Positions 8,331-33,965 are shown, counted from the stretch's first letter. The stretch is 34,112 nucleotides of DNA from an uncultured Methanosarcinales archaeon (GCA_964425545.1 CAYRMP010000001.1:1-34112), one strand, 5' to 3'. Translations and numbers: made by a program. The notes: a model not told the origin generated them from the sequence alone.

Positions 8331-8885
8331 TTAACTGCAAATTAACTCAAACTGAAGCCCCTGATATCCGCCAGCATAGGATTGGTGGAGGATGTTTCTT
8401 AAAATCACTTTAGTTCCATCTGTTAAAACTTTTGAATTGCCTTCTTTTAGACCAAATTCTTCACCATTAATCACAAATACACCGTTAGTTTCTTCAGTAA
8501 CTCCATTCATCGAATCATCTAAACTATAGTACGTAAATATAGAATAGTCTTTTAAACAAGCTTTTTCTAATTTAAATTGTGTTCCCCTCACCCCACCAGC
8601 ATAATCTTGAATTACAGAACCGTTATGAGTTAATTTTACCCCAGCGAGAACACTTGACTCACCACTTTTTAAATTGCCAGATGAAACATCATTAACAGCA
8701 TAAGCTCCCACATGACCTTCCATATTAACAGCATATGCATTAATTTCATAATCCTTCAAACACATAGTGGACTTAGCACTAATTTGTTTTTCAACATTTT
8801 TAACTCTAACTGCCTGCCCAGTGCCGCAACCTACTATAAATATCGAAACTATTACTAAACTTAAAACAATTAACATTTTTCTCAT
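8331..8885 (-). CDS. secreted lipoprotein with two tandem homologous domains
   Basis: Signal peptide plus lipobox (MRKMLIVLSLVIVSIFIVGCGTG). I prefer the ATG at 8885 over the GTG at 8894 because GAGGTG lies 7 nt upstream of it. Internal duplication: CLKDYEINAY...LKSGESSVLAGVKLTHNGSVIQDYAGGVRGTQFKL versus CLKDYSIFTY...LKEGNSKVLTDGTKVILRNILHQSYAGGYQGLQFEL. Confidence 0.65.
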   Translation of the reverse strand: MRKMLIVLSLVIVSIFIVGCGTGQAVRVKNVEKQISAKSTMCLKDYEINAYAVNMEGHVGAYAVNDVSSGNLKSGESSVLAGVKLTHNGSVIQDYAGGVRGTQFKLEKACLKDYSIFTYYSLDDSMNGVTEETNGVFVINGEEFGLKEGNSKVLTDGTKVILRNILHQSYAGGYQGLQFELICS

Positions 8886-8945
8886 ATTTAACACCTCATC
8901 GTAATTTATATTTTAGAAGATTTGTTTATTTTTAAAAACTCGTGA

Positions 8946-8971: not shown

Positions 8972-9631
8972 CTAATGTTTTAGCTTTTTGTTTTTAACCT
9001 GTTTTTCTACTATTTCAAAGAGTTTGTTTAATGCTTCTCGAGGAATACCTAAGTTCATTTTTGTTTTGAGATATTCCAAGAAATAGCCTAAATCAAAGGC
9101 TGCTCTATCTTTTCCCAATTCAATTTGTTTTTTTGCTTCACCAATTACTACACCCCAATTTATTTTGATAGAATTGATGATTTTTCGGGCATCATCTTTA
9201 TCTTTTATTCTGTCAGTAGCACATTTCATAAGTATAATATCGTGGGGATCGGCAATTTTTAAAATTAAATTTTCTTCAAATTGGTGGATTTGTTCTGCTC
9301 TTTTTCTCATATTCTCAGAAAAGATGAAATCTATTACTTCTACAACAAATAAATCAAAACGTTCATCGTTTAGTTTAAACATTTCGGGGGTATTTCTCTT
9401 TGCGCCGTAAACTTTAATGGCATCCATCTCTAAGTAACCCAAAGATTTTACTGCTTCTTTGAAAACATCACGGTCTTTCTCGTTTTCAAAGACGAGATCA
9501 ATATCTAAAGTCGCGTCTTTAAAACCCAGGAACATCATGGCTGTCCCCCCTATGGCATAAACAGTTATCTTTCTGGTGAGTCTTCTGGAGATGTTTAATA
9601 ATAATTTTTGTTGTTGATCTATAGTAATCAT
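8972..9631 (-). CDS. AbiEii/AbiGii-like nucleotidyltransferase (putative type IV TA toxin)
   Basis: N-terminal ITVYAIGGTAMMFLGFKDATLDIDLVF fits the GGTAL...D.D NTase motif of DUF1814/AbiEii. Later MKCATDRIKDKDDARKI resembles the K..A...R.KD..D motif. The start overlaps the upstream wHTH gene by 4 nt (ATGA). Confidence 0.5.
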   Translation of the reverse strand: MITIDQQQKLLLNISRRLTRKITVYAIGGTAMMFLGFKDATLDIDLVFENEKDRDVFKEAVKSLGYLEMDAIKVYGAKRNTPEMFKLNDERFDLFVVEVIDFIFSENMRKRAEQIHQFEENLILKIADPHDIILMKCATDRIKDKDDARKIINSIKINWGVVIGEAKKQIELGKDRAAFDLGYFLEYLKTKMNLGIPREALNKLFEIVEKQVKNKKLKH

Positions 9632-10248
9632 CTGTATTCCTCCAAATCGTTCTTGTTAAACGGGAGATAAATTTTCCATACTTTTTCTATTTTCGTAAAA
9701 TCTCTGGTTTCTAATCCTGGGACAACATATTCAAATTTATGTTCTTTTTTGGGAAGAGTGCTGCTTCTAAATTTATTAGCCATCCTTCTTACTTTCATAA
9801 TCTGGCGAGCAAGATCATACAATGCCCCAACTTGTCTTTCGATATGATTCTCTTTGGCAAGACGATATAATTCTGCCCAATGACTAATTTTTTTAAATAA
9901 GGCCAACGAAGCGAGAATAGTTCTAAGGCTTTTAGTTTTGATTGCATAGATTAAAGTTTCTTCTAAACTTGGTTCTCTTCCGTATATTTTATGAATTATT
10001 GGTGTGGAAATTTTAATAGGAGAATGCTGATTAATTATCTCATAGTAACTTTTACCCCCTAATTTATTATCCAGAGAGATATTGTAGACCCTTCTATTAT
10101 TACTCTGCCTCCTGGTTTTAACATAACCCTCTTTTCTAAGGGCGTGAAGATAATAAATAGCCATTCTTTTATCTGCTTTAAGTATGTCCATTACTGATTC
10201 AATGGTTTGAATTCCGGCTAGTTTTTGTAGAAGTTCGATCTTCTTCAT
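9628..10248 (-). CDS. winged-helix DNA-binding protein, AbiEi-like putative antitoxin/regulator
   Basis: The N-terminal ~60 aa look like a wHTH (VMDILKADKRMAIYYLHALRKEGYVKTRRQSNNRRVYNIS). The gene is translationally coupled to the downstream NTase. rc ATTTATATAATA lies ~25 nt upstream of the ATG. Confidence 0.4.
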   Translation of the reverse strand: MKKIELLQKLAGIQTIESVMDILKADKRMAIYYLHALRKEGYVKTRRQSNNRRVYNISLDNKLGGKSYYEIINQHSPIKISTPIIHKIYGREPSLEETLIYAIKTKSLRTILASLALFKKISHWAELYRLAKENHIERQVGALYDLARQIMKVRRMANKFRSSTLPKKEHKFEYVVPGLETRDFTKIEKVWKIYLPFNKNDLEEYR

Positions 10249-10373: not shown

Positions 10374-13300
10374 TTACGAACCTATTCTTAATTTTCCCGT
10401 CAATTGCGGCCAGAAGAAATCTAATCCAGCATTTACCACCACTGTTTGCATAGTGCCATTAACTGCGCAATGTACTTTCTCCATTCCAGAAGCTTCTTCC
10501 AGCAGTTCTAATTGTAATTCTGGCGGGACTTTGATGTTTCTGACATATTCGCACACCGGAGTATCGAAGTTTTGGTATTCCGCAACTAAACTTTGCCGCA
10601 CACCGGGGAATATCTCTTCTACGGCGCGAACTTTCTTGCCGGCAACATTGGCGATGTAAACATTCCGGAAATTCTGCGCTTGAGTAACAAATGTTTTTTC
10701 TGCTAAAGGGCCGGAACCAAACAAATTCTTGAACCATTTGAGGATGTTGTCAATTACGCCTGGGCTCAGTTGTAATCCTTCTTGAGCAAAAATCACTGCA
10801 TTCAATTCGTCAGAATGATATAGGTCTGCACTGCTGGGGAATTCTAAGCCTTGTAAATTACATTCTACAAAATCGCTTCCTGAACTCTTGCAGATCTGGC
10901 TTAATTTATCCTGCGGGATATTTAATGAAACTAAGAAAGACTTGGGATCATCTATTTCTTTGTTGAGGGTGGTTGCAAGAGCTACTTTAAATTTGCCGCC
11001 GTCTTTGTATTGCAATACACACACATTATTGATACAGGTGTTCTGGCTGTCTGGAACTAATCTTTTTCCGTCTGGGTCTTTAATATTGTTAAAACAGGTA
11101 GGCAATACTTGCGGTTGAGCTGGCTTTTGCAGACTTTTAGATAACGATTGCTGAGATTTCTGGGTAACTGAATATTCCCCACCTAGATAATTTTCATTAT
11201 TCCCTAAATCTAATAGTGTTTCTCTATAAGGGGAACAATACAACGTATATTCGTCGTTCTCTGCGACTTCTAATAATTTTGTTGCTAAATACTTGGTTCT
11301 GCTGGTCCAGTTTCCTTGGTTGCAGTAATTATCAAAAATATATTCAGTATTGTTAACGCAGATAGGATATTTTCCCTTATAGAAACTTTCGGCAGTGTTT
11401 TCTGCCTTTCCAGAACCCAAGACAAAACACTGGCTTTCCTGCGGGCAAAATCCCCATTGTTGGGCATTCCAGTCAAATTTCAATGGTGAACGCTTCCATG
11501 CTCCATCAACACAGCGGTAATCTCTTCCGTCAGCAACATGCTCAGTAATAGTTGTCAATGTGCTCATGGGTTCTACGCAAGCATAGCCGTTCCAGCAGTA
11601 ATTGTCTGGACAGCAGGCGACTCCTGATCTTGCATCTGGATTGGCGAACCCTTCCGGCAACTGATCACCAGATTTATATGAATATTCTACCGGGCCGAAT
11701 TCATCAACTAATTGTAAAGATGGTTTTTCTACTTCGCAGGGCCCGGTAAATTCAACAACGAGATAGGATGCATCACCGGTGTTAAACTGCGGCAATGTTG
11801 CTTCTTCGCTGTTACCATCTTTACCAACTAAGAGTATTTTTGTAATGCATTCCTGCGCTGTACTGAAATATAAATCAGCCTGCGAAGGCACAGATATCCT
11901 TTCCGAACGCAGCTTTTGGTTGCTTCCTAAAGAAACTTTATTTTCTTTCACATAATTGCTTTTTTCATCAGCTACGGTCTGGCCGTTGGCTAATAAAATC
12001 TCCCAATACGGAATTTTTGTTGCTGAAGCAATAAACTCTGCATTAGGAATAAAGTTTTGCGCTGGCAGGACTGCGGTTGATTGGTTCCTGGAGGAAGCAA
12101 GCTTGGCTTGTTCTTTTAGTACCAGTTCAACATTTTCATAATATGTGGAGATATTTTGGCCGGGTTCTGGTTTTTGCAGAGGATCGGCATAACCAACATG
12201 AGTTAATCCTTCCTCGCTCCAGGTATTAACGACCGTAAATGCATCTTTATTCTTCTCTTCTTTGTGAACTTCGCTGTAAGAACAGAATTTATCCCCGATA
12301 ACCGCACAATATTGCAGATTTTTATCTTCTTCAATAGTTGTTATAAAGTCTGCTGCTCTGCATCCATAAAACCCTATGTCTTTGGTTGATTCTTCGCCTT
12401 CGTTGTAATATAATACTTGCTGGGCAATTCTTTTTACTCGTAGGTTTGCATATTCTGAAAATTCCTGGCTGGTGACCAGAGTTTCATCCGCTGTCAATGT
12501 TCCGGTAACATAATATAATTCGTATAAATCTGGATGCAGGTTAGTTACTTTATACGGCGGATTTCCTGGAAGCGGGAAAAGACATTCTGTCTCGCTGCAA
12601 GCGTAAGTTACCGTTTGAGTAACGGGTTTGGTCGAAGGAGCTAAGTTGCTGATGGGGAAAAAATGTTTTGGCTTTAATTTTGCAACTACGGAAATGGGGT
12701 GATGCCATACCTCACGAGCTTCTTCTTTGTTAAGATATTGGGCTGGGCCGGCTAGTTTGAAATTTTCATCATCTGGATCTGTAGCTGAAGGCAATTCCTT
12801 CCCAATAGGGGTATTTGTTGCTTCATCATAGAAAAATAATTCTATTGCTGAATTAGGATCGTCGCTGGTGGTGTCCTTAAACCACAACTTAGTAATTCCT
12901 CTGTAACTTTGATTAGAAATACTTTCTGCTAATTTAAAATGGCATAAAACAGTGGAGGTATCTCCTACCTTCAAGGTATTTTCAACATTATCTTCGTTGC
13001 ATTTGATAGTTTTTTCATCCAAGATATCATCTTTTGGATCAGAAATTTTTTGTTGGCTGTAAGTGCGATAATCTATGGTAATAGTTGGTAATGGTATGGA
13101 GTCATAATGCGGATCGAACTCCGTTTCCTGAGACTGTACTTTGAACTCTACATCCATAACTGTATCACTGGAAGCGATGGGTTGAGAATTCCAACAGCCA
13201 TAATATGTCGCTTCACTGCCCTGGTCCGGATCAACAAATTCTTTACTTAATCCGGCATAATATTCATTCTTGGCATTTCCGCAGCAGTTGGCCGCCGGCG

Positions 13301-15743
13301 CAATCTCGCTAACTTCTTGATCTTCGCCTAGCCAGGCTTCTTTACCGTACAATACTTCACAGAGATTCTGTCCGGTAATTCCGGCGTCGGGATTGCCGGC
13401 ATCGGCATCTTGTATCCAAGTGCTGGAACTGGCTGCTTCCTGACCTGAACAAAGCTGGTTTGGTAAATTAGGATTATCGCTGGTCAAGTAAATGTTGCGA
13501 ACTTCAATTAAATTCTCGCTGTCGGAACTGATTGTAAAGCCTTGGATTGCTTTATAATCACCGACGGGAACTTGCACGTGCATGTACGCAGTTGAATCTG
13601 AAAGAGGAGAATTGATAGCATAACCTAAAACATTGCCGTCGAAATAAACTACCTTTTTATCATCAACTTTAGGACCAACTAACTTTAAATTTATTTTTAA
13701 TGGAAGTTTGAGGTCTTTCAATTCTGCTGGAGTTCCAGCTTCGTCCTTCACAAAGCGAACCATAAAGTTAAGATAATTATAACCGGTAAAATCTAAAAAT
13801 CCTTGTCCATAATATTTTTCATATAATTCGTTATATTCTATAACAACAGAGGTATCTATTTTAGATTCGCGAAGGTAATCATTTTCTGCGGTTGGTTCAT
13901 CGGGTATTTCTGGAATTGAAAGAGGAAGCGTATAAAGTCCTTCTCCCGTGTATCGGCCTTTCACGCTGGGATTTTCACGCTTATTCCAGTCACTGGTACA
14001 TTCTGCCCACGCCCACCTGTTTCCTTCCTGATAACAATAAAACCGGTTGCTTAACTTTTGTTCTGCACCTTCTGCCAACACCGGCGGTTCAAAGTTTTTT
14101 TCTGATTGGGCATTGCAGGCCAGCCAATCGTCAGCATTTGACACTACATCAAAAGGTGCTTCTCCTGGTTTTTTGATTGTAAAAATTTTAAAGATGTTAT
14201 TAACGGCTGCTGCATCTATCCAGCACCAATTCTTTCCTTCACAGCCATTATTGTCAAAAACTTCCTCGATTCCATTGCCATCGAAATCTTTTTCAGTGCT
14301 TACAAAATCTTTATTGTCGGTTAAACAGGCAAAGCTTTGCTGAGAATTTAGTTCTGTTAAAACCTTGCCGGCATCATCAGCGCCATTATAACCGCAACAG
14401 TAACCGCCTTCTGTGGTATCTATCCAGGAAAATGGTTCATTATAAATGTTAAGCGCGCGGAATGCGGCTTTATCGCAAATATAATCTCCGCCGCCGCAAG
14501 AATTGTCGTCAGTACATAACTCTGTAGCGATGTACTGGCAAGTTCCCGGTTCTGAACTAGTAGTATCACACTCCCAATCGTTGACATTGCCACAGTCGTC
14601 ATTTGAATCACATGTATCCACTGGTGGTTGGCCTTTTAATCTACAAATTCCGGTTATTTGTTCCGCATTTTCTGAAGTGAGGCATTCTTCACCTTCTTCA
14701 CAAGGGTTAGCTTCTGAACAAATTTCATTACTCTCACTGCAATGCCCAACTACTCCTTGTTCGCAAGAAGCTTTGTTTTCGTGACAGCTGTCTGAAGTCA
14801 CTCCTTTCGTATCTTCGAGTTCTTCACTTTGTCCTGGACCGCCGCAATCGTTGTTGATTCCGTCACCGCACACTTCTGCTGCGCCGCTATTGATACAAAT
14901 TGCACAGCTGGAATATCTGCCGGGATTTTTTTCACATGCTCCTTTTGCTAATTTCCTGATTTCTTCAACGGTTTGATCTTTACCTTCTACGGTTGGACAC
15001 TCAAGTCCGGGATAATCATCAGAAGCATCATCATCACAATCTTCGCTGGTAGTATATCCGTCCTTGTCTTGATCGGTAACCCATTCGTATGCGCCGGTAT
15101 TTTTATTGATAGTGCATTCGTAAGTTTTTCCGTCAGCAACCACTTTTTTCTTAAGATGCTCCTGGCTATCGCATCTTGCCCATAAGTTGTTATCAGAACA
15201 AATATATTCCCACTTGTCGTTAGCATAAGCCCAATTTGATAAAAACTCTGGGTCACCAACATCACCACTAAGGGCGGACATTGGACCAGAAAATGCCCTG
15301 CTATGCACCCCGTTCCCAAACTTCATTCCGGGGACAGCGCTACGATAGCCGCAATCGTCGTCATTAGGAGAATCATCTTCGTCACCCACTACTAACCAAC
15401 AACCATTGTCCGGCGGGGTCGAAGAAACGACATCTAGTTTGCAGTCCCCAGTATCCATTAGATTTAAAATGGTGCCCCCCGGAGTACCAGGTTCATAGCT
15501 CTGGCATTCTATGCCTTCCTCGTTGCAATCAAAATTATAAGCTTTTAAAGGATCAGGATTAGGATCACTTATTCCGTCTATTTCACTGCATGAACCCCCA
15601 TAACATGTTTCTACACCCACAACAATAGAAATACATTGATCGGTAGGACAATGTGCTTTCCATCCGCCAAGAACAGAATAAGATTGAAATAGGCTAAAAA
15701 GTAAAACTACTACTATCAAAAACCCTCTTTTTTTACTATTCAT
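10374..15743 (-). CDS. giant (1789 aa) secreted cysteine-rich acidic protein with a MopE-type metal-binding motif
   Basis: Uninterrupted 5.37-kb ORF with signal peptide MNSKKRGFLIVVVLLFSLFQSYSVLG. Dense CxnC patterns occur throughout. DQDKDGYTTSEDCDDDASDDYPGLEC...EVCGDGINNDCGG matches the putative metal-binding motif family (PF11617-like). No TM anchor was seen. Confidence 0.85.
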   Translation of the reverse strand: MNSKKRGFLIVVVLLFSLFQSYSVLGGWKAHCPTDQCISIVVGVETCYGGSCSEIDGISDPNPDPLKAYNFDCNEEGIECQSYEPGTPGGTILNLMDTGDCKLDVVSSTPPDNGCWLVVGDEDDSPNDDDCGYRSAVPGMKFGNGVHSRAFSGPMSALSGDVGDPEFLSNWAYANDKWEYICSDNNLWARCDSQEHLKKKVVADGKTYECTINKNTGAYEWVTDQDKDGYTTSEDCDDDASDDYPGLECPTVEGKDQTVEEIRKLAKGACEKNPGRYSSCAICINSGAAEVCGDGINNDCGGPGQSEELEDTKGVTSDSCHENKASCEQGVVGHCSESNEICSEANPCEEGEECLTSENAEQITGICRLKGQPPVDTCDSNDDCGNVNDWECDTTSSEPGTCQYIATELCTDDNSCGGGDYICDKAAFRALNIYNEPFSWIDTTEGGYCCGYNGADDAGKVLTELNSQQSFACLTDNKDFVSTEKDFDGNGIEEVFDNNGCEGKNWCWIDAAAVNNIFKIFTIKKPGEAPFDVVSNADDWLACNAQSEKNFEPPVLAEGAEQKLSNRFYCYQEGNRWAWAECTSDWNKRENPSVKGRYTGEGLYTLPLSIPEIPDEPTAENDYLRESKIDTSVVIEYNELYEKYYGQGFLDFTGYNYLNFMVRFVKDEAGTPAELKDLKLPLKINLKLVGPKVDDKKVVYFDGNVLGYAINSPLSDSTAYMHVQVPVGDYKAIQGFTISSDSENLIEVRNIYLTSDNPNLPNQLCSGQEAASSSTWIQDADAGNPDAGITGQNLCEVLYGKEAWLGEDQEVSEIAPAANCCGNAKNEYYAGLSKEFVDPDQGSEATYYGCWNSQPIASSDTVMDVEFKVQSQETEFDPHYDSIPLPTITIDYRTYSQQKISDPKDDILDEKTIKCNEDNVENTLKVGDTSTVLCHFKLAESISNQSYRGITKLWFKDTTSDDPNSAIELFFYDEATNTPIGKELPSATDPDDENFKLAGPAQYLNKEEAREVWHHPISVVAKLKPKHFFPISNLAPSTKPVTQTVTYACSETECLFPLPGNPPYKVTNLHPDLYELYYVTGTLTADETLVTSQEFSEYANLRVKRIAQQVLYYNEGEESTKDIGFYGCRAADFITTIEEDKNLQYCAVIGDKFCSYSEVHKEEKNKDAFTVVNTWSEEGLTHVGYADPLQKPEPGQNISTYYENVELVLKEQAKLASSRNQSTAVLPAQNFIPNAEFIASATKIPYWEILLANGQTVADEKSNYVKENKVSLGSNQKLRSERISVPSQADLYFSTAQECITKILLVGKDGNSEEATLPQFNTGDASYLVVEFTGPCEVEKPSLQLVDEFGPVEYSYKSGDQLPEGFANPDARSGVACCPDNYCWNGYACVEPMSTLTTITEHVADGRDYRCVDGAWKRSPLKFDWNAQQWGFCPQESQCFVLGSGKAENTAESFYKGKYPICVNNTEYIFDNYCNQGNWTSRTKYLATKLLEVAENDEYTLYCSPYRETLLDLGNNENYLGGEYSVTQKSQQSLSKSLQKPAQPQVLPTCFNNIKDPDGKRLVPDSQNTCINNVCVLQYKDGGKFKVALATTLNKEIDDPKSFLVSLNIPQDKLSQICKSSGSDFVECNLQGLEFPSSADLYHSDELNAVIFAQEGLQLSPGVIDNILKWFKNLFGSGPLAEKTFVTQAQNFRNVYIANVAGKKVRAVEEIFPGVRQSLVAEYQNFDTPVCEYVRNIKVPPELQLELLEEASGMEKVHCAVNGTMQTVVVNAGLDFFWPQLTGKLRIGS

Positions 15744-15769: not shown

Positions 15770-15777
15770 TATATAAA
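15770..15777 (-). promoter_or_regulatory. TATA box for the giant gene
   Basis: The minus strand reads ACATTTATATAGG. TTTATATA is centred ~31 nt upstream of the ATG at 15743, with no SD. Confidence 0.45.
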
Positions 15778-15786
15778 TGTAGCGAC

Positions 15787-15813
15787 AAAGAAAAAGATAA
15801 AAATAAAGAAAAA
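15787..15813 (-). terminator. oligo-T terminator after the mini-lipoprotein operon
   Basis: The minus strand reads TTTTCTTTATTTTTATCTTTTTCTTT immediately after the TAA at 15814..15816. This separates the two small genes from the giant gene transcriptionally. Confidence 0.4.
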
Positions 15814-16107
15814 TTACGCCGTAGCGTAAGGTTGACAAACTCCCGATTCTATTTCTTCACAAGAGTTAGCTTCAAAGCAAGTTTTCCACTCGGAATCCAT
15901 CCAGTCTCCATCTTTACACTGTTCAACTAAATATTCGTAATCGCTGTCTGGTTCTTGCAAGCCGCAACCATACAATTTATTGATTACTTCTTCGCATGTA
16001 TTCAGGGGCGTGATACTTTCTGCGCCTTCTCCAGTAGCATAGCTGTTATAGGTGTCTCCGCAAGCTACGCTTGAAACTAAAATCGCTAAAGGTAGTATTT
16101 TTTTCAT
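15814..16107 (-). CDS. small secreted 6-Cys lipoprotein (97 aa), paralog A
   Basis: Signal peptide plus lipobox MKKILPLAILVSSVACG. GGAGG lies 8 nt upstream of the ATG. Mature Cys pattern is C-x9-C ... C-x12-C-x5-C-x7-C. Confidence 0.7.
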   Translation of the reverse strand: MKKILPLAILVSSVACGDTYNSYATGEGAESITPLNTCEEVINKLYGCGLQEPDSDYEYLVEQCKDGDWMDSEWKTCFEANSCEEIESGVCQPYATA

Positions 16108-16124: not shown

Positions 16125-16439
16125 TTAAAACTGTTTAAAAAGTGGATCACACTTTTCATTGATATCTTCGCAAGGGACTTGAAAGATACATTGGGTCCAT
16201 GCTGACTGATGGTTAGGGTAGTCGCCTTTTTCACATTCAGTGGGGTCTTTCCATTCATCGTTACCGTTTGCGTTGCATTCTACAACGTATCTTTGGTAAA
16301 TATCATTACAAGTATAGGTGCCGTTTGGTCCACTGCCGGGAATCTGGTAATAGTTGCTTACTTGGTCTCCGCCGCATGCGGTTATTGCTCCTAATACTAA
16401 TACTCTTGTTTTGTTTTTCAATAAATTTGTTAATGACAT
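16125..16439 (-). CDS. small secreted 6-Cys lipoprotein (104 aa), paralog B
   Basis: I prefer the ATG at 16439 (MSLTNLLKNKTRVLVLGAITACGG) because GGAGG lies 8 nt upstream; the ORF-track TTG start at 16484 is unlikely. Mature Cys pattern C-x10-C ... C-x13-C-x5-C-x6-C parallels paralog A. Confidence 0.7.
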   Translation of the reverse strand: MSLTNLLKNKTRVLVLGAITACGGDQVSNYYQIPGSGPNGTYTCNDIYQRYVVECNANGNDEWKDPTECEKGDYPNHQSAWTQCIFQVPCEDINEKCDPLFKQF

Positions 16440-16620
16440 GATAATTTCCTCCGCTATTACTAAGTTACTACTAGAAAAGGACAATTATTTATAAAACTTG
16501 CTATTAAAACGGTTAAATTCATTCTCAGACCTAAAAAAAATACGTTTGTAATTAGAAGACAATCACCTTCTTTTGTTAAGCACATAAAATGTGGTTTTTG
16601 AAGCCTAAAATCAAGGCATT

Positions 16621-16905
16621 TCATACCTCTATACCTTCTTTAACAGCTTCTTGAACAATAGTAATTTGTTTCTTTAATTTATTGAATTCTTTGGGTGTAT
16701 AACAGAGAAAATCCACCGGATAATGAATTTCCCAGTAATTGTACATTTTAGCTCCTCGTTCAACAAAATCAAGCTTCTTAAATTTAGAGCTTACCAGAAT
16801 TAAATCCACGTCGCTGTGTCGGCGAGAGCTGCCTTTAGCGCGAGATCCAAAAAAGATAACCTTATCTAATTTAAAATCTTTAAGCATAGTTGTTTTTCGA
16901 TCCAT
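16621..16905 (-). CDS. minimal nucleotidyltransferase (MNT), orphan with no adjacent HEPN
   Basis: FFGSRAKGSSRRHSDVDLILVS is the GS...D.D signature. The protein is 94 aa and collinear with the MNT at 4465..4794 (VDLEILCYSPEEI versus VDFLCYTPKEF; REALKQGKEI versus QEAVKEGIEV). It starts 9 nt after the Rpp30 stop. Confidence 0.8.
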   Translation of the reverse strand: MDRKTTMLKDFKLDKVIFFGSRAKGSSRRHSDVDLILVSSKFKKLDFVERGAKMYNYWEIHYPVDFLCYTPKEFNKLKKQITIVQEAVKEGIEV

Positions 16906-17469: not shown

Positions 17470-17532
17470 ATATCTCTAAAATTACCCCTTAACTAAACTG
17501 TGCCTTACTTAGAGACGCAGAGAGGGAAAGAA

Positions 17533-17736
17533 ATGAACATCAACGTATGTAACGAAAGAGAACAAACTAATACTAAAGTTGAATTTGCAGGAAAGACGGC
17601 CAGAGATCTTCTTAATCAACTAAAACTCAATCCTGAAGCCTTTATCTTAGTACGCAACAGTGAAGTTATAACTGAAGATGAACTGCTGCAGGACAGCGAT
17701 CTGATAGAACTTCTTAGCGTCATTTCCGGAGGATAA
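17533..17736 (+). CDS. ThiS/MoaD-type ubiquitin-like small modifier/sulfur carrier (SAMP/TtuB-like) ending in Gly-Gly
   Basis: The 67-aa product ends ...LIELLSVISGG-stop, the diagnostic C-terminal GG of beta-grasp sulfur carriers. GAGGG lies 7 nt upstream of the ATG at 17533; the ORF track offers a GTG at 17500 as an alternative. The stop is 1 nt before the next gene. Confidence 0.7.
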   Translation: MNINVCNEREQTNTKVEFAGKTARDLLNQLKLNPEAFILVRNSEVITEDELLQDSDLIELLSVISGG

Positions 17737-17737
17737 A

Positions 17738-18673
17738 ATGGCCTGTACCAAATGCAATAATAATGCCATCATTTCCCTCCAGCACGGAAATTTATGTAAA
17801 AATCATTTTATTGATTATTTTGAAGATAAGGTTTTCAAAACCATCAACAAGTATCAGTTAATCGGCAGAAATGAAAAATTGTGTGTGGCCGTTTCCGGAG
17901 GAAAGGATTCTTTAACCGTGCTTTATCTTACAAAAAAATACTTAGAAAAAAATAACCTTCCAAAAAATAATCTCTTTGCTCTTGCTATAGATGAAGGCAT
18001 AGACCAATACCGCGAAAAAACACTTGTTGATTTGAAAAAATTCTGTGAAGAGCATGCGGTTCCTTTAACTGTTGCTTCCTTCGAACAAGAATTGGGAAAA
18101 ACTCTTGATAAAGCTTACCCAATCATCAATAGAGATGCTAACAAGAAACCCTGCACTGTCTGCGGCGTATGGCGCCGTTATTTGCTCAACAAACATGCTA
18201 AAAAAATTGGCGCAGACAAAGTCATTACGGGACACAATCTGGACGATGAAGCACAGGCAATTATCATGAACGTTTTCAAAGCTAACACCAAACTTACTGG
18301 ACGCCTTGGCCCCATTTCCGGAGTTGAAGAACACGACTTATTTATCCAAAGAGTAAAACCACTTTATTTCTGTGCAGAAAAAGAAGTCCGCCTCTACGCC
18401 TTATTGAAAAATTTCCAGATCCAATTCGTTGAATGTCCCTATTCTAAAGAAGGATACCGGCACCACATCCAGGAGATGCTGAACGAATTCGAACATAAAT
18501 ATAAAGGAACAAAACAGGGAATTGTCAATTCTTTCCTGGCCTTGCTTCCCCTATTTCAAAATCCAGAGAAAAAAATCACGGAAAAAATACAGCTTTGCAG
18601 TATGTGCCAAGAGGCATCTAACAAAGAGGTCTGCAATGCCTGCCGGATGAAGGTGACTATCCAAAATGCATAG
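17738..18673 (+). CDS. TtuA/NcsA (Ncs6/Ctu1) family tRNA 2-thiolation PP-loop ATPase
   Basis: N-terminal zinc finger CTKC...CKNH. PP-loop VAVSGGKDSLTV. Fe-S ligand candidates are PCTVCGVWRR and ECPY. C-terminal zinc finger CSMCQEASNKEVCNAC. Confidence 0.85.
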   Translation: MACTKCNNNAIISLQHGNLCKNHFIDYFEDKVFKTINKYQLIGRNEKLCVAVSGGKDSLTVLYLTKKYLEKNNLPKNNLFALAIDEGIDQYREKTLVDLKKFCEEHAVPLTVASFEQELGKTLDKAYPIINRDANKKPCTVCGVWRRYLLNKHAKKIGADKVITGHNLDDEAQAIIMNVFKANTKLTGRLGPISGVEEHDLFIQRVKPLYFCAEKEVRLYALLKNFQIQFVECPYSKEGYRHHIQEMLNEFEHKYKGTKQGIVNSFLALLPLFQNPEKKITEKIQLCSMCQEASNKEVCNACRMKVTIQNA

Positions 18674-19622
18674 ATATTCTAGACAAATCCTGCTTAACGA
18701 AATAGGACAGGAAGGACAAAAAAAAATACAAGGCAAGAAAATAGCTGTCGTTGGAGTAGGTGCTCTCGGAACTGTGGCGGCTGAACTGTTAGCGCGGGCA
18801 GGAGTTGGTTCCTTGATTCTCATTGACAGGGATATGGTAGAAATATCAAACTTGCAACGGCAAACTTTGTTTGGAGAAAAAGATGTCGGAAGAAGTAAGG
18901 CTATTGCTGCAGAAAAAAGAATTGGAGAAATTAATTCCGAGATAAAAATTGAGCCGCACCCGATTCATCTTAACCCAAAAAACATGCAGGTATTGCAAAC
19001 GGTAGATCTTATCCTCGACTGTACTGATAATCTTCAAACCAGATTTCTGATCAATGACTACTGTAAAAAAGAAAGAAAACCCTGGATTTACGCTGCTGCG
19101 ATTAAAACGTCAGGATATGTTATGCCCATTCTTCCGGAAGGGCCTTGCTTGCAATGTTTCCTTTCTGAAACAAATCTTGAAACTTGTGATACAGCGGGAG
19201 TATTGAACACCATTACTGTTTCTATCGCTTCGTTACAAAGCACCCTAGCGTTAAAATTATTGCTAGGTAAAGAGATTGAATCAACTCTGTATCATTATGA
19301 CATCTGGAATCAAAATTTCAAAAAACTGAACATCAAAAAGAAAGAAAACTGTCCTACTTGTTCGGGTATTTTCTCTCGTTTAGAAAAAAAAGAAAATTCT
19401 AAATATGTTCGTTTCTGTTCGACCGGAAAATACCAAACCCTTGGACCGGAAGCGGATTTAAAGATAATAAAAGCGCGCTGGGAAAAAATAGGTAAGGTAA
19501 CGGAAGAAAAAGATTTGCTGTATTTTCAAAACATTACTTTGTTTAAAGATGGGCGGGCTTTAATTAAAGCAAATTCTAAAGAAGATGCACAAAGCCTATA
19601 TTCTCGGTTGGTTGGAAACTAA
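18666..19622 (+). CDS. E1-like MoeB/ThiF/UbaA adenylyltransferase with an extra C-terminal extension
   Basis: YSRQILL...KIAVVGVGALGTVAAELLARAGVGSLILIDRDMVEISNLQRQ is the Rossmann ATP site. Two CxxC pairs are present (CLQC, CPTC). About 85 aa follow the second CxxC. The start overlaps the ttuA-like stop by 8 nt. Confidence 0.85.
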   Translation: MHRYSRQILLNEIGQEGQKKIQGKKIAVVGVGALGTVAAELLARAGVGSLILIDRDMVEISNLQRQTLFGEKDVGRSKAIAAEKRIGEINSEIKIEPHPIHLNPKNMQVLQTVDLILDCTDNLQTRFLINDYCKKERKPWIYAAAIKTSGYVMPILPEGPCLQCFLSETNLETCDTAGVLNTITVSIASLQSTLALKLLLGKEIESTLYHYDIWNQNFKKLNIKKKENCPTCSGIFSRLEKKENSKYVRFCSTGKYQTLGPEADLKIIKARWEKIGKVTEEKDLLYFQNITLFKDGRALIKANSKEDAQSLYSRLVGN

Positions 19623-25229: not shown

Positions 25230-25309
25230 TACTCTTTATATTGAAATACAAAATATATAAAGATTCCTATGCAGTCTGAAAAAAATTCTTAATTTTCTTA
25301 TAATAGCAG

Positions 25310-25336
25310 CCCCACCCCTTTATTTCCTTTGGAGAA
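25310..25336 (-). repeat. ORB-like element with G-string (left flank, minus orientation)
   Basis: The reverse complement reads TTCTCCAAAGGAAATAAAGGGGTGGGG. By hand count, 18 of the first 23 positions match the right-flank element at 25980..26005. It is not positioned to act as an SD for any gene. Confidence 0.55.
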
Positions 25337-25427
25337 TTAGATTGTTAAGAAAATGAATGTCATGTTATGAATAAAGTTATATTATTAATAAGAAAATCAA
25401 ATAAAATAGTTTAATCATCTAAAAAAA

Positions 25428-25447
25428 GCGATTTCCTTTAGAACTAT
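25428..25447 (-). repeat. mini-ORB-like element (left flank, minus orientation)
   Basis: The reverse complement reads ATAGTTCTAAAGGAAATCGC. It shares the AAAGGAAAT core with the 25310..25336 element but has no G-string. Confidence 0.35.
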
Positions 25448-25868
25448 TTTTATTGTCAATTGTTTCTCATCATCTGTTTAGTTTTTGTTAAATGTAATCT
25501 TAATGATAAATTAAAGGTTAAATAATTCATGGTTTATTGATGTTTGTCAAGTTAATTTTCCTTCTTCTCATTTTCTTTTTGTTCTATTTATCTTTTTTAC
25601 ATATTTTTAATAGTTATTTACTAAGTATTTATTTTCTATATTGAAAATAATATAATAATAATAAGAATAAATAAGAATAATAATGAGAATAAAACAAAAC
25701 AGATTATTTAAGATATTAATAAAGAAATTAAAAATTGCATTTAACGATGTATTCATAAAAATGATAAATAAACACAAATAAACAATAACCCAAATATAAA
25801 AGAGAAAATATTTAGGAAAATATTAAAGTAAAATTGTTTTCCAAAGCAAGAGATAATTATTTATACTT

Positions 25869-25891
25869 ATTTCCACTAGCAACATAGGTGA
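25869..25891 (+). repeat. ORB-like element (right flank, plus orientation)
   Basis: ATTTCCACTAGCAACATAGGTGA. By hand count, 16 of 23 positions match TTTTCCATGAGAAACAAAGGGGT at 25980. Confidence 0.4.
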
Positions 25892-25979
25892 TAGAAAATC
25901 TAAGTATAAACCTATATCATCTATCTCCAAATTGTTTATTAACACTCAGCAAAGATCATCACTGTTTACAATTAACTGT

Positions 25980-26005
25980 TTTTCCATGAGAAACAAAGGG
26001 GTCAG
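25980..26005 (+). repeat. ORB-like element with G-string (right flank, plus orientation), abutting the orc1/cdc6 start
   Basis: TTTTCCATGAGAAACAAAGGGGTCAG has a TTCCA...GAAAC core followed by GGGG, as in published ORB architecture. Caveat: the GGGG lies 13-16 nt upstream of the ATG at 26017 and could instead be a distant SD. Confidence 0.5.
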
Positions 26006-26016
26006 AGTAATAAAAT

Positions 26017-32807: not shown

Positions 32808-33965
32808 TTATTGTTCTATCTGACTAATTTTTATGCTTGGCGGACCAAACTTTTTGCAATGTTCAGTTCCTTTACATCCTTCTGCTGGCAGGCTTGCATC
32901 GCAGGTTCTTTTAAAACATTGGAAACCTGTTTCGTAACCGCAATGAAACATTTCCGTATTATGTTCAACTGAAGGGTTCTCAAACAGTGCAGGACACTTG
33001 CGTTCGTACAAGTATGCCCCGTAACCAGCATAGTTCATCATAAGGCCGTCTGGATGAAGTTCCGGACTAGGACTAGCATAATATCGAGACCAAAGGCAAG
33101 GAGTTTCTGGATCTACGTAACCAGGCGGAGGAAGACTCATCTGATAATAACCCTTGGATTTTTGCATCATAGCTTCATTATTCCATGTAAACGGGCCCTC
33201 ACCAAAATAGCCCATCGAACAGGCATAATTCCATGCTGTTGGTTCCCCTTCAGGATTTTTCTGAACAGTCCCGCTATCAACAAACAAACCAGAACAAGCA
33301 TCAAGTTCCTTTATAGGGTTAGCCGCGGTGCTTGGCGCAGCAGGATATTTGTTTCCAGTCTGAAGTTGAATTATTTCAACAAATCCTACTTTTGATTGAT
33401 CTACTCCGCCATCACTATCATAGCAGCCAACAGTTGCATAATCTGGCTGATCTAAAAATGTTCCAAGAATTTCTTGGCAAGTATCTACTGCTGGATATAA
33501 TAAAGATTTTTTATAAGTAGTATCAATCACGTGAATCGGGGAGTTCCCTGCACACCGATATCTATCATATTTGATTTCAGTATTACCAAATTCACTACAG
33601 TAATGCGTTTTCTTACCAGCATTTTCAGGTTTATTACAAAATTGAGCCGCCTTACCTTCCACACTAGTATCTGCTACGGAAGGAGCTTGTGTTGATAATT
33701 TGCCCATTACTGTTTTAATCTGTGTCGTAGGAGCCGTTGATGCGGCTTTTGAAATTCCGTATTTAAGGGTAGACTCCTGCCTTACTGCCTGTCCAGCGAA
33801 TGCACTATTGCCCTTACTTTCCAAATCAGCTAGCAACTCTTCCCGCTGTTCGGGAGTCAATTTTGCTAATTCCGCTTCCAATTCTTCATCGGTAATCTGC
33901 GGAGCGCAAGAAACCAAGAACATAAACATCACTAATAAACTCATAACAACTATTATTTTCTTCAT
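32808..33965 (-). CDS. secreted cysteine-rich lipoprotein (385 aa)
   Basis: Signal peptide plus lipobox MKKIIVVMSLLVMFMFLVSCAPQ, with GAGGTG 8 nt upstream of the ATG. A helical acidic linker (EELEAELAKLTPEQREELLADLES) is followed by a Cys-rich globular part that includes CYDSDGGVD. Confidence 0.75.
   Translation of the reverse strand: MKKIIVVMSLLVMFMFLVSCAPQITDEELEAELAKLTPEQREELLADLESKGNSAFAGQAVRQESTLKYGISKAASTAPTTQIKTVMGKLSTQAPSVADTSVEGKAAQFCNKPENAGKKTHYCSEFGNTEIKYDRYRCAGNSPIHVIDTTYKKSLLYPAVDTCQEILGTFLDQPDYATVGCYDSDGGVDQSKVGFVEIIQLQTGNKYPAAPSTAANPIKELDACSGLFVDSGTVQKNPEGEPTAWNYACSMGYFGEGPFTWNNEAMMQKSKGYYQMSLPPPGYVDPETPCLWSRYYASPSPELHPDGLMMNYAGYGAYLYERKCPALFENPSVEHNTEMFHCGYETGFQCFKRTCDASLPAEGCKGTEHCKKFGPPSIKISQIEQ

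Follow-up and report, generated by a model that had tools for sequence, protein, structure and literature searches.

The DNA analysed here is a stretch of 34,112 nucleotides (nt), deposited for an uncultured Methanosarcinales archaeon (GCA_964425545.1 CAYRMP010000001.1:1-34112) and referred to below as the window. Its minus strand carries the gene of a predicted exported protein of 1789 amino acids (aa), the giant protein, rich in cysteine. The question raised by this locus is whether the giant protein is an accessory factor for contact with host cells, as proposed in an initial annotation made from the sequence alone, or belongs to a more widely conserved system. With about an even chance of being correct, the reading preferred here is that the giant protein is the unanchored outer member of a cell-surface assembly of several proteins which is specific to its lineage and serves in the envelope or in attachment; the giant protein would be docked via its C-terminal core and would expose lectin-like modules. 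This reading was adopted because the protein combines a Sec-type N-terminus and no other anchor with a Cys-rich beta chain, a slowly evolving C-terminus, a module-swapping N-terminus and lectin-like folds, and because anchored Cys-rich partners are encoded next to it in relatives.

The giant gene is a single uninterrupted open reading frame (ORF) of 5.37 kb and the largest of the window, the runner-up being the 1196-aa large subunit of PolD. The deduced chain of 197.9 kDa has an isoelectric point (pI) of 4.41 and contains 72 Cys (4.0%), and all the Cys-rich strings quoted in the initial annotation were found in the translation, so the description of an acidic chain with dense Cys was correct. 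The TATA box reported at leaderless distance was also recovered by direct reading. Because this TATA-like box lies about 30 nt upstream of the ATG and no Shine-Dalgarno sequence was seen in the upstream sequence read in the same way, an own leaderless or near-leaderless transcript seems likely for the giant gene. An oligo-T tract (~15781-15812) follows the stop codon of the gene upstream of it.

The unusual length of the ORF, together with its missing annotation, was the reason for considering that it might be an assembly chimera or a decaying pseudogene rather than a real gene, a concern raised from the beginning; no evidence supporting such an artefact was found. An identical ORF in the same gene order is present in GCA_016203275.1 (P0001/HY494_00410), a metagenome-assembled genome (MAG) of Candidatus Woesearchaeota in which it is annotated as a hypothetical protein. 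In L012, an independent assembly of about 87% nucleotide identity, a full-length giant ORF is present in collinear position and is 90% identical. The comparison with L012 gave a whole-gene ratio of nonsynonymous to synonymous substitution rates (dN/dS) of 0.094 at a dS of 0.57, with every 100-codon window at or below 0.26, showing that the giant gene is under strong purifying selection. Because of the collinear ORF in an independent assembly, the low dN/dS and the identical ORF in a public MAG, a chimera or a pseudogene is very unlikely, and with dozens of full-length relatives of similar length and confident structure models (see below) the probability of an artefact becomes negligible.

The N-terminus, judged by its n/h/c layout and its conservation across the family, is a putative Sec-type signal peptide, which is also how the initial annotation had read it. 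Cleavage would occur after QSYSVLG and before the next Gly, downstream of the hydrophobic region FLIVVVLLFSLF, and the N-terminal consensus of the family is MxxKKRGxLxVVxLL. In a Kyte-Doolittle analysis with 19-residue windows, the value of 1.6 was exceeded at aa 6-28 and nowhere else, and no second transmembrane segment was detected. The giant protein is hence predicted from its layout to be exported, cleaved by signal peptidase and left unanchored.

Word-indexed searches identified about 45 full-length relatives of 1,580-1,950 aa, all unnamed and none with a Pfam hit. In GTDB species-representative genomes, 85 relatives were found at 77 or more loci, with identities from 90% down to 23%, and those with a lineage given came from Woesearchaeota, Nanoarchaeota or Nanoarchaeia. 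When a profile built from the C-terminal half was run exhaustively with HMMER, 1114 cluster representatives (50% clustering) passed E <= 1e-3, of which 963 passed 1e-10 and 455 passed 1e-30; the distant members that carry a name were from Woesearchaeota. Among named members, the family is therefore restricted to the Woesearchaeota/Nanoarchaeota lineage. The assignment of the DNA to a small-genome, episymbiotic-type archaeon of the DPANN group was borne out as to DPANN, the identical protein being annotated under 'Candidatus Woesearchaeota'. No description of the family was encountered in the literature on Woesearchaeota surface layers (S-layers) and on DPANN Cys-rich or giant surface proteins, or in a 2026 complete-genome Nanobdellota preprint (bioRxiv 10.64898/2026.05.13.725050), nor was a Pfam or PDB record of it found. 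The expectation of undescribed biology thus held, and the family is an undescribed one within the known general category of large archaeal surface proteins.

The position of the giant gene in the chromosome was found to be fixed. The window and every relative with enough flanking sequence, down to about 30-38% identity, share a block composed of Orc1/Cdc6, an AT-rich gap, SpoIIM, an OB-fold protein, MCM, TBP, THUMP, ThiF, a PP-loop ATPase, ThiS, RNase P p30 and the giant gene. Because this housekeeping block, apparently origin-proximal, is kept over such distances, the accessory context assigned to the gene in the initial annotation is unsupported, and the giant gene is a core, lineage-wide gene. 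The number of GTDB loci and cluster representatives and the low dN/dS likewise speak against the strain variability that had been considered possible.

In most loci with enough downstream sequence, the most divergent members of the family included, the giant gene is followed by three further genes. The first encodes a protein of ~830-1030 aa (~860 aa) with a single N-terminal hydrophobic helix and starts 8-400 nt past the giant gene; in about 50 lineages its N-terminus is composed of a basic stretch, the motif [KR]-[GAS]-Q-[IVL]-T-[IVLM]-F and then about 20 hydrophobic residues. The second partner is a CarboxypepD_reg-repeat protein of ~2050-2160 aa (~2100 aa), which in L001 contains 78 Cys and a C-terminal transmembrane helix and has a charged tail of about 160 aa on the cytoplasmic side. 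The signal peptide of this partner (MFKKRGFFLVV...) nearly matches that of the giant protein (MNSKKRGFLIVV...), and the layout of KKRG followed by a short h-region is common to both. The third partner, often next in order, has about 176 aa, is N-anchored and starts with KKG-[MIL]-G-[IV]-G-Q-V-F-V-F. All three combine a membrane anchor with many Cys, and the N-termini of the ~860-aa and ~176-aa partners resemble the class III (prepilin-like) signals of archaea. The conservation of anchored partners in most lineages points to an envelope assembly of several proteins more than to an adhesin acting alone.

The giant protein itself evolves very unevenly along its length. In the comparison with the L003 genome, where MCM is 94% identical, the C-terminal core (aa 1371-1789) retained 84% identity, as against 79% for RNase P p30 and 77% for ThiF, and the N-terminal third (aa 27-440) retained 44%. 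Within the latter, residues corresponding to aa 351-400 are present in about 24% of relatives only. The most distant listed members keep mainly aa ~1373-1530, a Cys module that no known family matches, and in distant members Laminin_G_3, NosD or an above-threshold MopE motif precedes the same C-terminal core. Three vicinal Cys pairs are invariant across the family. The CCPxNYCWNGYxC string of the module was considered as a chitin-binding knot and this was rejected, as the alignment with scarabaecin had E = 0.58 and no chitin-binding family recurred in 45 members. A repeated module suggested by the three invariant CC...CW motifs was also rejected: the hhalign comparison of all non-overlapping 140-aa tiles revealed no internal repeat and no pair with a probability of 50% or more, with two spot-checked tile pairs below 2% and an overlapping-tile positive control at 100%.

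Searches of Pfam and NCBIfam detected no catalytic or other domain in the giant protein, and none was seen in any of 23 full-length relatives, for which Pfam gave no significant hit. No significant PDB sequence match was found for the whole protein by single-sequence or profile search, and profiles of four segments gave nothing significant in Pfam and PDB searches. The absence of a catalytic motif, noted by eye at first, was in this way confirmed, as was that of a long internal repeat by the tile comparison above.

AlphaFold2 models, built on 42-46 family sequences, were mostly beta for both halves of the chain. The model of aa 1-950 had a predicted local distance difference test (pLDDT) value of 78.7 and a predicted template modelling (TM) score (pTM) of 0.70, and that of aa 850-1789 had a pLDDT of 81.5 and a pTM of 0.61. 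Foldseek found no whole-chain PDB fold match for either half. Confident matches were local and were confined, in either half, to beta-jelly-rolls of carbohydrate-binding modules (CBM6, CBM22 and the porphyran CBM) with a Foldseek probability of 0.96-0.99, a target-normalised TM-score of 0.41-0.54 and a root mean square deviation (rmsd) of 4.3-5.7 Å over 124-138 columns. By predicted structure, each half thus contains a beta-jelly-roll fold of the CBM6/CBM22/CBM4_9 type. Membership of CBM families was not seen in the sequence, since there was no Pfam hit and profiles of the jelly-roll segments gave nothing below E = 1 against PDB. Matches to phage tail fibres in BFVD were rejected as generic beta-sandwich strings because of their TM-scores of 0.07-0.11 and rmsd above 25 Å. 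Full-length homology to a characterised S-layer or enzyme family, which would have called the novelty of the protein into doubt, was found neither in Pfam, NCBIfam and PDB nor by Foldseek.

The N-terminal third contains a loop at aa 221-229 with the residues W221, D224, D226, D228 and G229 invariant in the family, followed by a motif which the initial annotation had compared with MopE; aa 221-302 constitute, judging by these residues, a putative Ca2+/metal site. The resemblance to MopE is present and stays below the Pfam cut-off: on the fragment aa 215-310, PF11617 (Cu-binding_MopE) gave 18.1 bits (E = 0.0032, at aa 284-302) against a cut-off of 27 bits, and it was not reported for the whole protein. 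Among 23 close relatives one matched PF11617 (E = 0.012), and of the distant members scanned P0157 alone passed the cut-off, with 36.2 bits. The MopE structure 2vov aligned with the giant protein at E = 0.14 over the 62 residues of aa 223-284 only, and no MopE was present among the Foldseek matches, so no fold similarity was seen beyond the motif. Like MopE of Methylococcus capsulatus, the giant protein is thus a predicted secreted protein with a short D/C-rich motif (DxDxDG...C...PGAxExCDGxDNDC-like), and unlike it in the whole of the remaining, unrelated chain.

In the model proposed here, the giant gene would be transcribed from its own TATA promoter and its product exported by the Sec pathway, with removal of the signal peptide. 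The ~198-kDa, mostly-beta chain would then fold outside the cell, stabilised by disulfides and probably binding Ca2+. Its slow C-terminal core (aa ~1050-1789, chiefly the Cys module 1373-1530) would dock onto the membrane-anchored partners, and two Cys-rich lipoproteins encoded upstream may join the assembly in this subclade. The CBM-like jelly-rolls and the fast-diverging N-terminal third would face outward and could bind glycans of other cells or particles. A surface or binding role, host contact possibly included, is reasonable because of the DPANN origin, the predicted export without an anchor, the lectin-like jelly-rolls, the fast N-terminal third and the undescribed function. A bolder version of the model, which we hold to be unlikely in its full form, makes the giant protein and its three partners a new Woesearchaeota-specific envelope or attachment apparatus, disulfide-rich, with largely unmatched folds and partly anchored by pilin-like helices. 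In it, the giant protein would act as the unanchored, Ca2+-binding, lectin-bearing outer element contacting hosts, and the whole would replace the canonical S-layer as a surface organelle.

Several observations weigh against the reading of the giant protein as an outer subunit of such an assembly. It showed no similarity to a known S-layer, adhesin or pilus protein in Pfam, NCBIfam, PDB sequence, Foldseek and BFVD searches. S-layer proteins are usually Cys-poor, and a classical S-layer is therefore not implied for it. The jelly-roll assignment comes from the fold only, at the TM-scores given above and with no sequence support, and the two lipoproteins are limited to the near subclade. The three partner genes are absent from the window (tblastn of the window) and from its closest relatives (within 4-10 kb), so that for this genome the complex is assumed and not seen. 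Curated models of pilins and class III signals in Pfam and NCBIfam matched no partner N-terminus. Finally, RGFLIV in the N-terminus of the giant protein also fits the loose class III pattern of [KR]-G followed by hydrophobic residues, and such a signal, if real, would mean that the N-terminal helix is retained on the protein.

The closest competitor of the outer-subunit reading is the one put forward initially, a dedicated stand-alone host-attachment adhesin drawn from a flexible, strain-variable gene pool, and it appears unlikely. The DPANN lineage, the two lectin-like jelly-rolls, Laminin_G_3 in a distant member and the fast N-terminal third would all suit an adhesin, and giant surface proteins have been proposed as host-interaction factors in nanohaloarchaea (PMC10266531). 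A gene from a flexible pool would, however, be hard to reconcile with a fixed position in a housekeeping block throughout the family and a dN/dS of 0.09 with no window above 0.26, and the neighbouring toxin-antitoxin (TA) genes behave as independent indels. The partners conserved in most lineages also argue against a protein acting alone, and they would be needed to keep the giant protein on the cell because it has no anchor of its own. What these observations reject is the accessory, stand-alone status; host binding by outward-facing modules is compatible with the evidence and with the outer-subunit reading. Release from the cell, with the protein scavenging metal as a MopE-like copper-binding protein or processing polysaccharides, is highly improbable. 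The MopE-like motif, the missing anchor and NosD in a distant member can be quoted in its favour, and CBM-like folds usually accompany glycoside hydrolases. The motif, however, is sub-threshold and covers 19 of 1789 residues, with the MopE similarity confined to aa 223-284, no catalytic domain was found in the giant protein or in 23 relatives, and the conserved adjacency of genes for membrane-anchored partners argues for retention on the cell.

Two further alternatives retain an assembly and differ in its nature. In bacteria, PilY1/PilC adhesins are carried by minor pilins, and the layout of PilY1 is similar to that of the giant protein, which is predicted to be Sec-exported and unanchored and combines an invariant DxDxDG loop with an N-terminus that varies and a C-terminus that is conserved. 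By analogy, the giant protein could be an adhesin at the tip of, or accessory to, a fibre resembling a type IV pilus or a bindosome. It would be carried by the ~860-aa and ~176-aa partners as prepilin-like subunits processed by a prepilin peptidase, to which their N-termini (for the former in about 50 lineages) would correspond. We regard this as decidedly unlikely: the pilin and class III signal models of Pfam and NCBIfam miss the partners, the clusters examined showed neither an assembly ATPase nor a platform protein or a prepilin peptidase, and Foldseek gave no fold match to PilY1 or pilins. The ~2100-aa partner, moreover, is a membrane protein of type I whose tail is cytoplasmic, which suggests an envelope more than a fibre. 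Quite improbable, in turn, is a self-assembling lattice protein forming the main paracrystalline S-layer wall of Woesearchaeota. The giant protein would suit it in being large, acidic (pI 4.4), predicted to be exported, beta-rich, conserved in the lineage, usually single-copy and equipped with a strong-looking promoter of its own, and the adjacent gene for a membrane-anchored partner in most lineages recalls SlaA/SlaB. Against a lattice stand the missing S-layer matches in Pfam, NCBIfam and PDB and among the top 50 Foldseek matches of either half, the atypical 4% Cys with three invariant vicinal pairs, the presence of only six N-glycosylation sequons, and a C-terminal core conserved like housekeeping genes, unlike that of typical S-layer proteins.

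Among known systems, SlaA/SlaB appears to be the closest organisational analogue of the giant protein and its partners: a large unanchored outer protein is combined with a membrane-anchored partner encoded next to it, both being lineage-wide envelope genes. The resemblance stops at organisation, as no sequence or fold match was found and the giant-gene cluster has three anchored partners of differing topology, all Cys-rich. This pair, the two-component S-layer of Sulfolobales, is mentioned in PMC11329633. Among published proteins, the closest analogues of the giant protein are giant surface proteins of the SPEARE type, known from Nanohaloarchaeota (e.g. SVXNc_0300; PMC10266531). Like them it has a giant acidic ectodomain and comes from a small-genome DPANN archaeon, and its putative Sec signal peptide would correspond to theirs. 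SPEARE-type proteins have been proposed to act at the cell-cell interface; they are cell-bound, have 5,000-9,400 aa, Ig-like/fibronectin-like repeats and a VirB4/TraG-like ATPase domain, and their genes are located at organism-specific rearrangements (PMC10266531). In contrast, the giant protein has 1789 aa, is Cys-rich and is encoded in a conserved core neighbourhood, and neither repeats, an ATPase or Ig Pfam hit, an anchor in the form of a second hydrophobic segment nor sequence similarity to SPEARE-type proteins was seen.

The two ~125-140-residue segments predicted as jelly-rolls resemble CBM6/CBM22/CBM4_9 (1o8p, 1gmm, 2w5f, 8xmz) in fold and differ from them in having neither sequence similarity nor an attached glycoside hydrolase; the jelly-roll fold also occurs in non-lectin proteins. 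The comparison with PilY1/PilC and the Sulfolobus bindosome is an analogy only, based on the Sec-type, unanchored layout, the Dx[DN]xDG-type loop and the prepilin-like neighbours. There is no homology or fold match to PilY1/PilC, the partners far exceed minor pilins in size, and the cluster showed no genes for pilus assembly.

Few DPANN archaea are as widespread as Woesearchaeota. To our knowledge none of them has been cultivated or imaged, no such report being found in the literature searched, and we know of nothing published on the composition of their cell surface or on their contact with partner cells. With the present results, what was annotated only as a hypothetical protein becomes a specific candidate, open to testing, for a component of the surface and the host interface of this lineage, which is not the same as a demonstrated mechanism. 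The analysis provides a strongly constrained family of more than 1000 representatives without Pfam coverage, a fixed chromosomal position, defined partner genes and a domain map, and the signature CCPxxYCWNGYxC could help to recognise the lineage in metagenomes.

The coordinates of the features of the giant gene and its neighbours in the window are collected in Table 1.

Table 1. Features of the giant gene, its product and the adjacent genes (positions counted from the first nucleotide of the window).
Feature	Position	Strand	Remarks
Giant gene, 1789-aa acidic Cys-rich protein, predicted to be exported	10374..15743	-	ATG start; stop codon 10374-10376
TATA-box-like element TTTATATA	15770..15777	-	direct reading; centre ~30 nt upstream of the giant gene ATG; presumed function
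Sec-type signal peptide, aa 1-26	15666..15743	-	n-region KKR, 12-residue h-region FLIVVVLLFSLF, c-region QSYSVLG; predicted from layout
Fast-evolving Cys-rich N-terminal third, aa 27-440	14424..15665	-	conservation profile; replaced or absent in distant members
W-x2-DxDxDG loop, then MopE-like Cys motif (AAEVCGDGINNDCGG), aa 221-302	14838..15083	-	invariant columns; putative Ca2+/metal site
Acidic Cys-rich insert (CHENKASCEQ...CDSNDDCGNVNDWECD), aa 335-425	14469..14741	-	lineage-specific, from occupancy profile
First CBM6/CBM22-like beta-jelly-roll (YNYLNFMVRF...VRNIYL), aa ~620-756	13476..13886	-	Foldseek 0.96-0.99 to 1o8p, 1o8s, 2w5f; range estimated from DSSP strands
Second fast-evolving segment, variable beta domain or linker, aa 901-1050	12594..13043	-	rate/conservation profile
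Second CBM-like beta-jelly-roll (PAxNFIPNAEF...HWEI...LRSERI...LQLVD), aa ~1209-1346	11706..12119	-	Foldseek 0.99 to 8xmz, weaker to CBM6/PA14; range estimated from DSSP pattern
Conserved C-terminal core, aa 1371-1789	10377..11633	-	slowest-evolving part, kept in all distant architectures; presumed docking role
Invariant disulfide-rich module (CCPxNYCWNGYxC...YRC...WGFC...), aa 1373-1530	11154..11627	-	family signature
Small Cys-rich lipoprotein A, 104 aa (MSLTNLL...LGAITAC/GGD lipobox)	16125..16439	-	GGAGG ribosome-binding site; directly upstream, near subclade only
Small Cys-rich lipoprotein B, 97 aa, tandem paralogue of A	15814..16107	-	GGAGG site
AbiEi-like (206 aa, no Pfam hit) and DUF6036 nucleotidyltransferase (219 aa, 8972-9631) pair	8972..10248	-	strain-specific insertion, absent from collinear L012; not part of the giant-gene system
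Orphan MNT nucleotidyltransferase	16621..16905	-	left over from a HEPN/MNT pair that L012 has intact; no part of the giant-gene system

The TA-like genes said to bracket the giant gene are indeed present, with DUF6036 at 8972-9631 and MNT at 16621-16905. The conclusion of an accessory context drawn from them did not stand, as these genes are independent indels: no conserved co-occurrence with the giant gene was observed, the AbiEi-like/DUF6036 pair being absent from L012 and the HEPN partner of the MNT being lost in the window. In other lineages, different TA modules occupy the same two positions. TA modules of the nucleotidyltransferase/HEPN and PIN types recur at the flanks of the giant gene in different lineages (L012 2878-3536, L004 7199-8996, L005 6036-7125 and L009 8460-9942, the last with two tandem MNT-HepT pairs); in the window the AbiEi-like/DUF6036 module is a fresh insertion and the MNT module a decayed one. 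The neighbouring TA genes therefore mark an insertion hotspot, not an accessory island.

The lipoproteins A and B contain 7 Cys each (~7%) and a lipobox of the ...AC/G type (the slash marks the lipobox boundary). Preceded by GGAGG, they stand directly beside a giant gene with a TATA box and without a Shine-Dalgarno sequence, so two modes of translation initiation occur side by side. The TTG start listed for lipoprotein A at 16484 is probably wrong, as homologues and the NCBI gene call use the ATG at 16439. Lipoproteins A and B were considered as universal anchors of the giant protein and rejected in that role: outside the near subclade they are not detectable, and in many lineages the space of 32-130 nt that separates RNase P p30 from the giant gene is too short for them. 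A 187-aa lipoprotein encoded at 8331-8894 has the lipobox IVGC, no Pfam hit and an internal duplication (CLKDYEI...YAGGVRGTQFKLE and CLKDYSI...YAGGYQGLQFEL); it was rejected as a recurring neighbour, being seen in L012 only, where it directly follows the giant gene. Another predicted lipoprotein, of 385 aa and without a Pfam hit, is encoded at 32808-33965 (MKKIIVVMSLLVMFMFLVSC...); with 15 Cys (3.9%) it fits the Cys-rich pattern of exported proteins, which in this organism contain 4-7% Cys as compared with 0-1.7% in most cytoplasmic neighbours.

The gap of about 790 nt between SpoIIM and Orc1/Cdc6 (25230-26016, GC ~0.23), with the PolD subunits DP1 and DP2 encoded just beyond, is probably the replication origin, and the distance from oriC to the giant gene would in that case be about 10 kb; a search of the gap for origin-recognition-box repeats gave nothing convincing. 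Beside RNase P p30, a conserved trio at 17500-19622 encodes a ThiS-like small protein, a PP-loop ATPase (NcsA/TtcA-like, 13 Cys) and a ThiF/UbaA-like E1, and looks like a ubiquitin-like sulfur-carrier or tRNA-thiolation module, of which the ThiF or ThiS member is missing in some lineages. Most genomes have one copy of the giant gene and a few have two, either in tandem, as in L039 (3036-7820 and 8930-13981), or on separate contigs, as in CAZGQD01 (L060, L067). The Woesearchaeota-type giant gene and its synteny were also found in L012-L014, L019, L020, L023, L026 and about 30 other loci titled 'uncultured Methanosarcinales archaeon', and these titles look like generic or wrong taxonomic labels.

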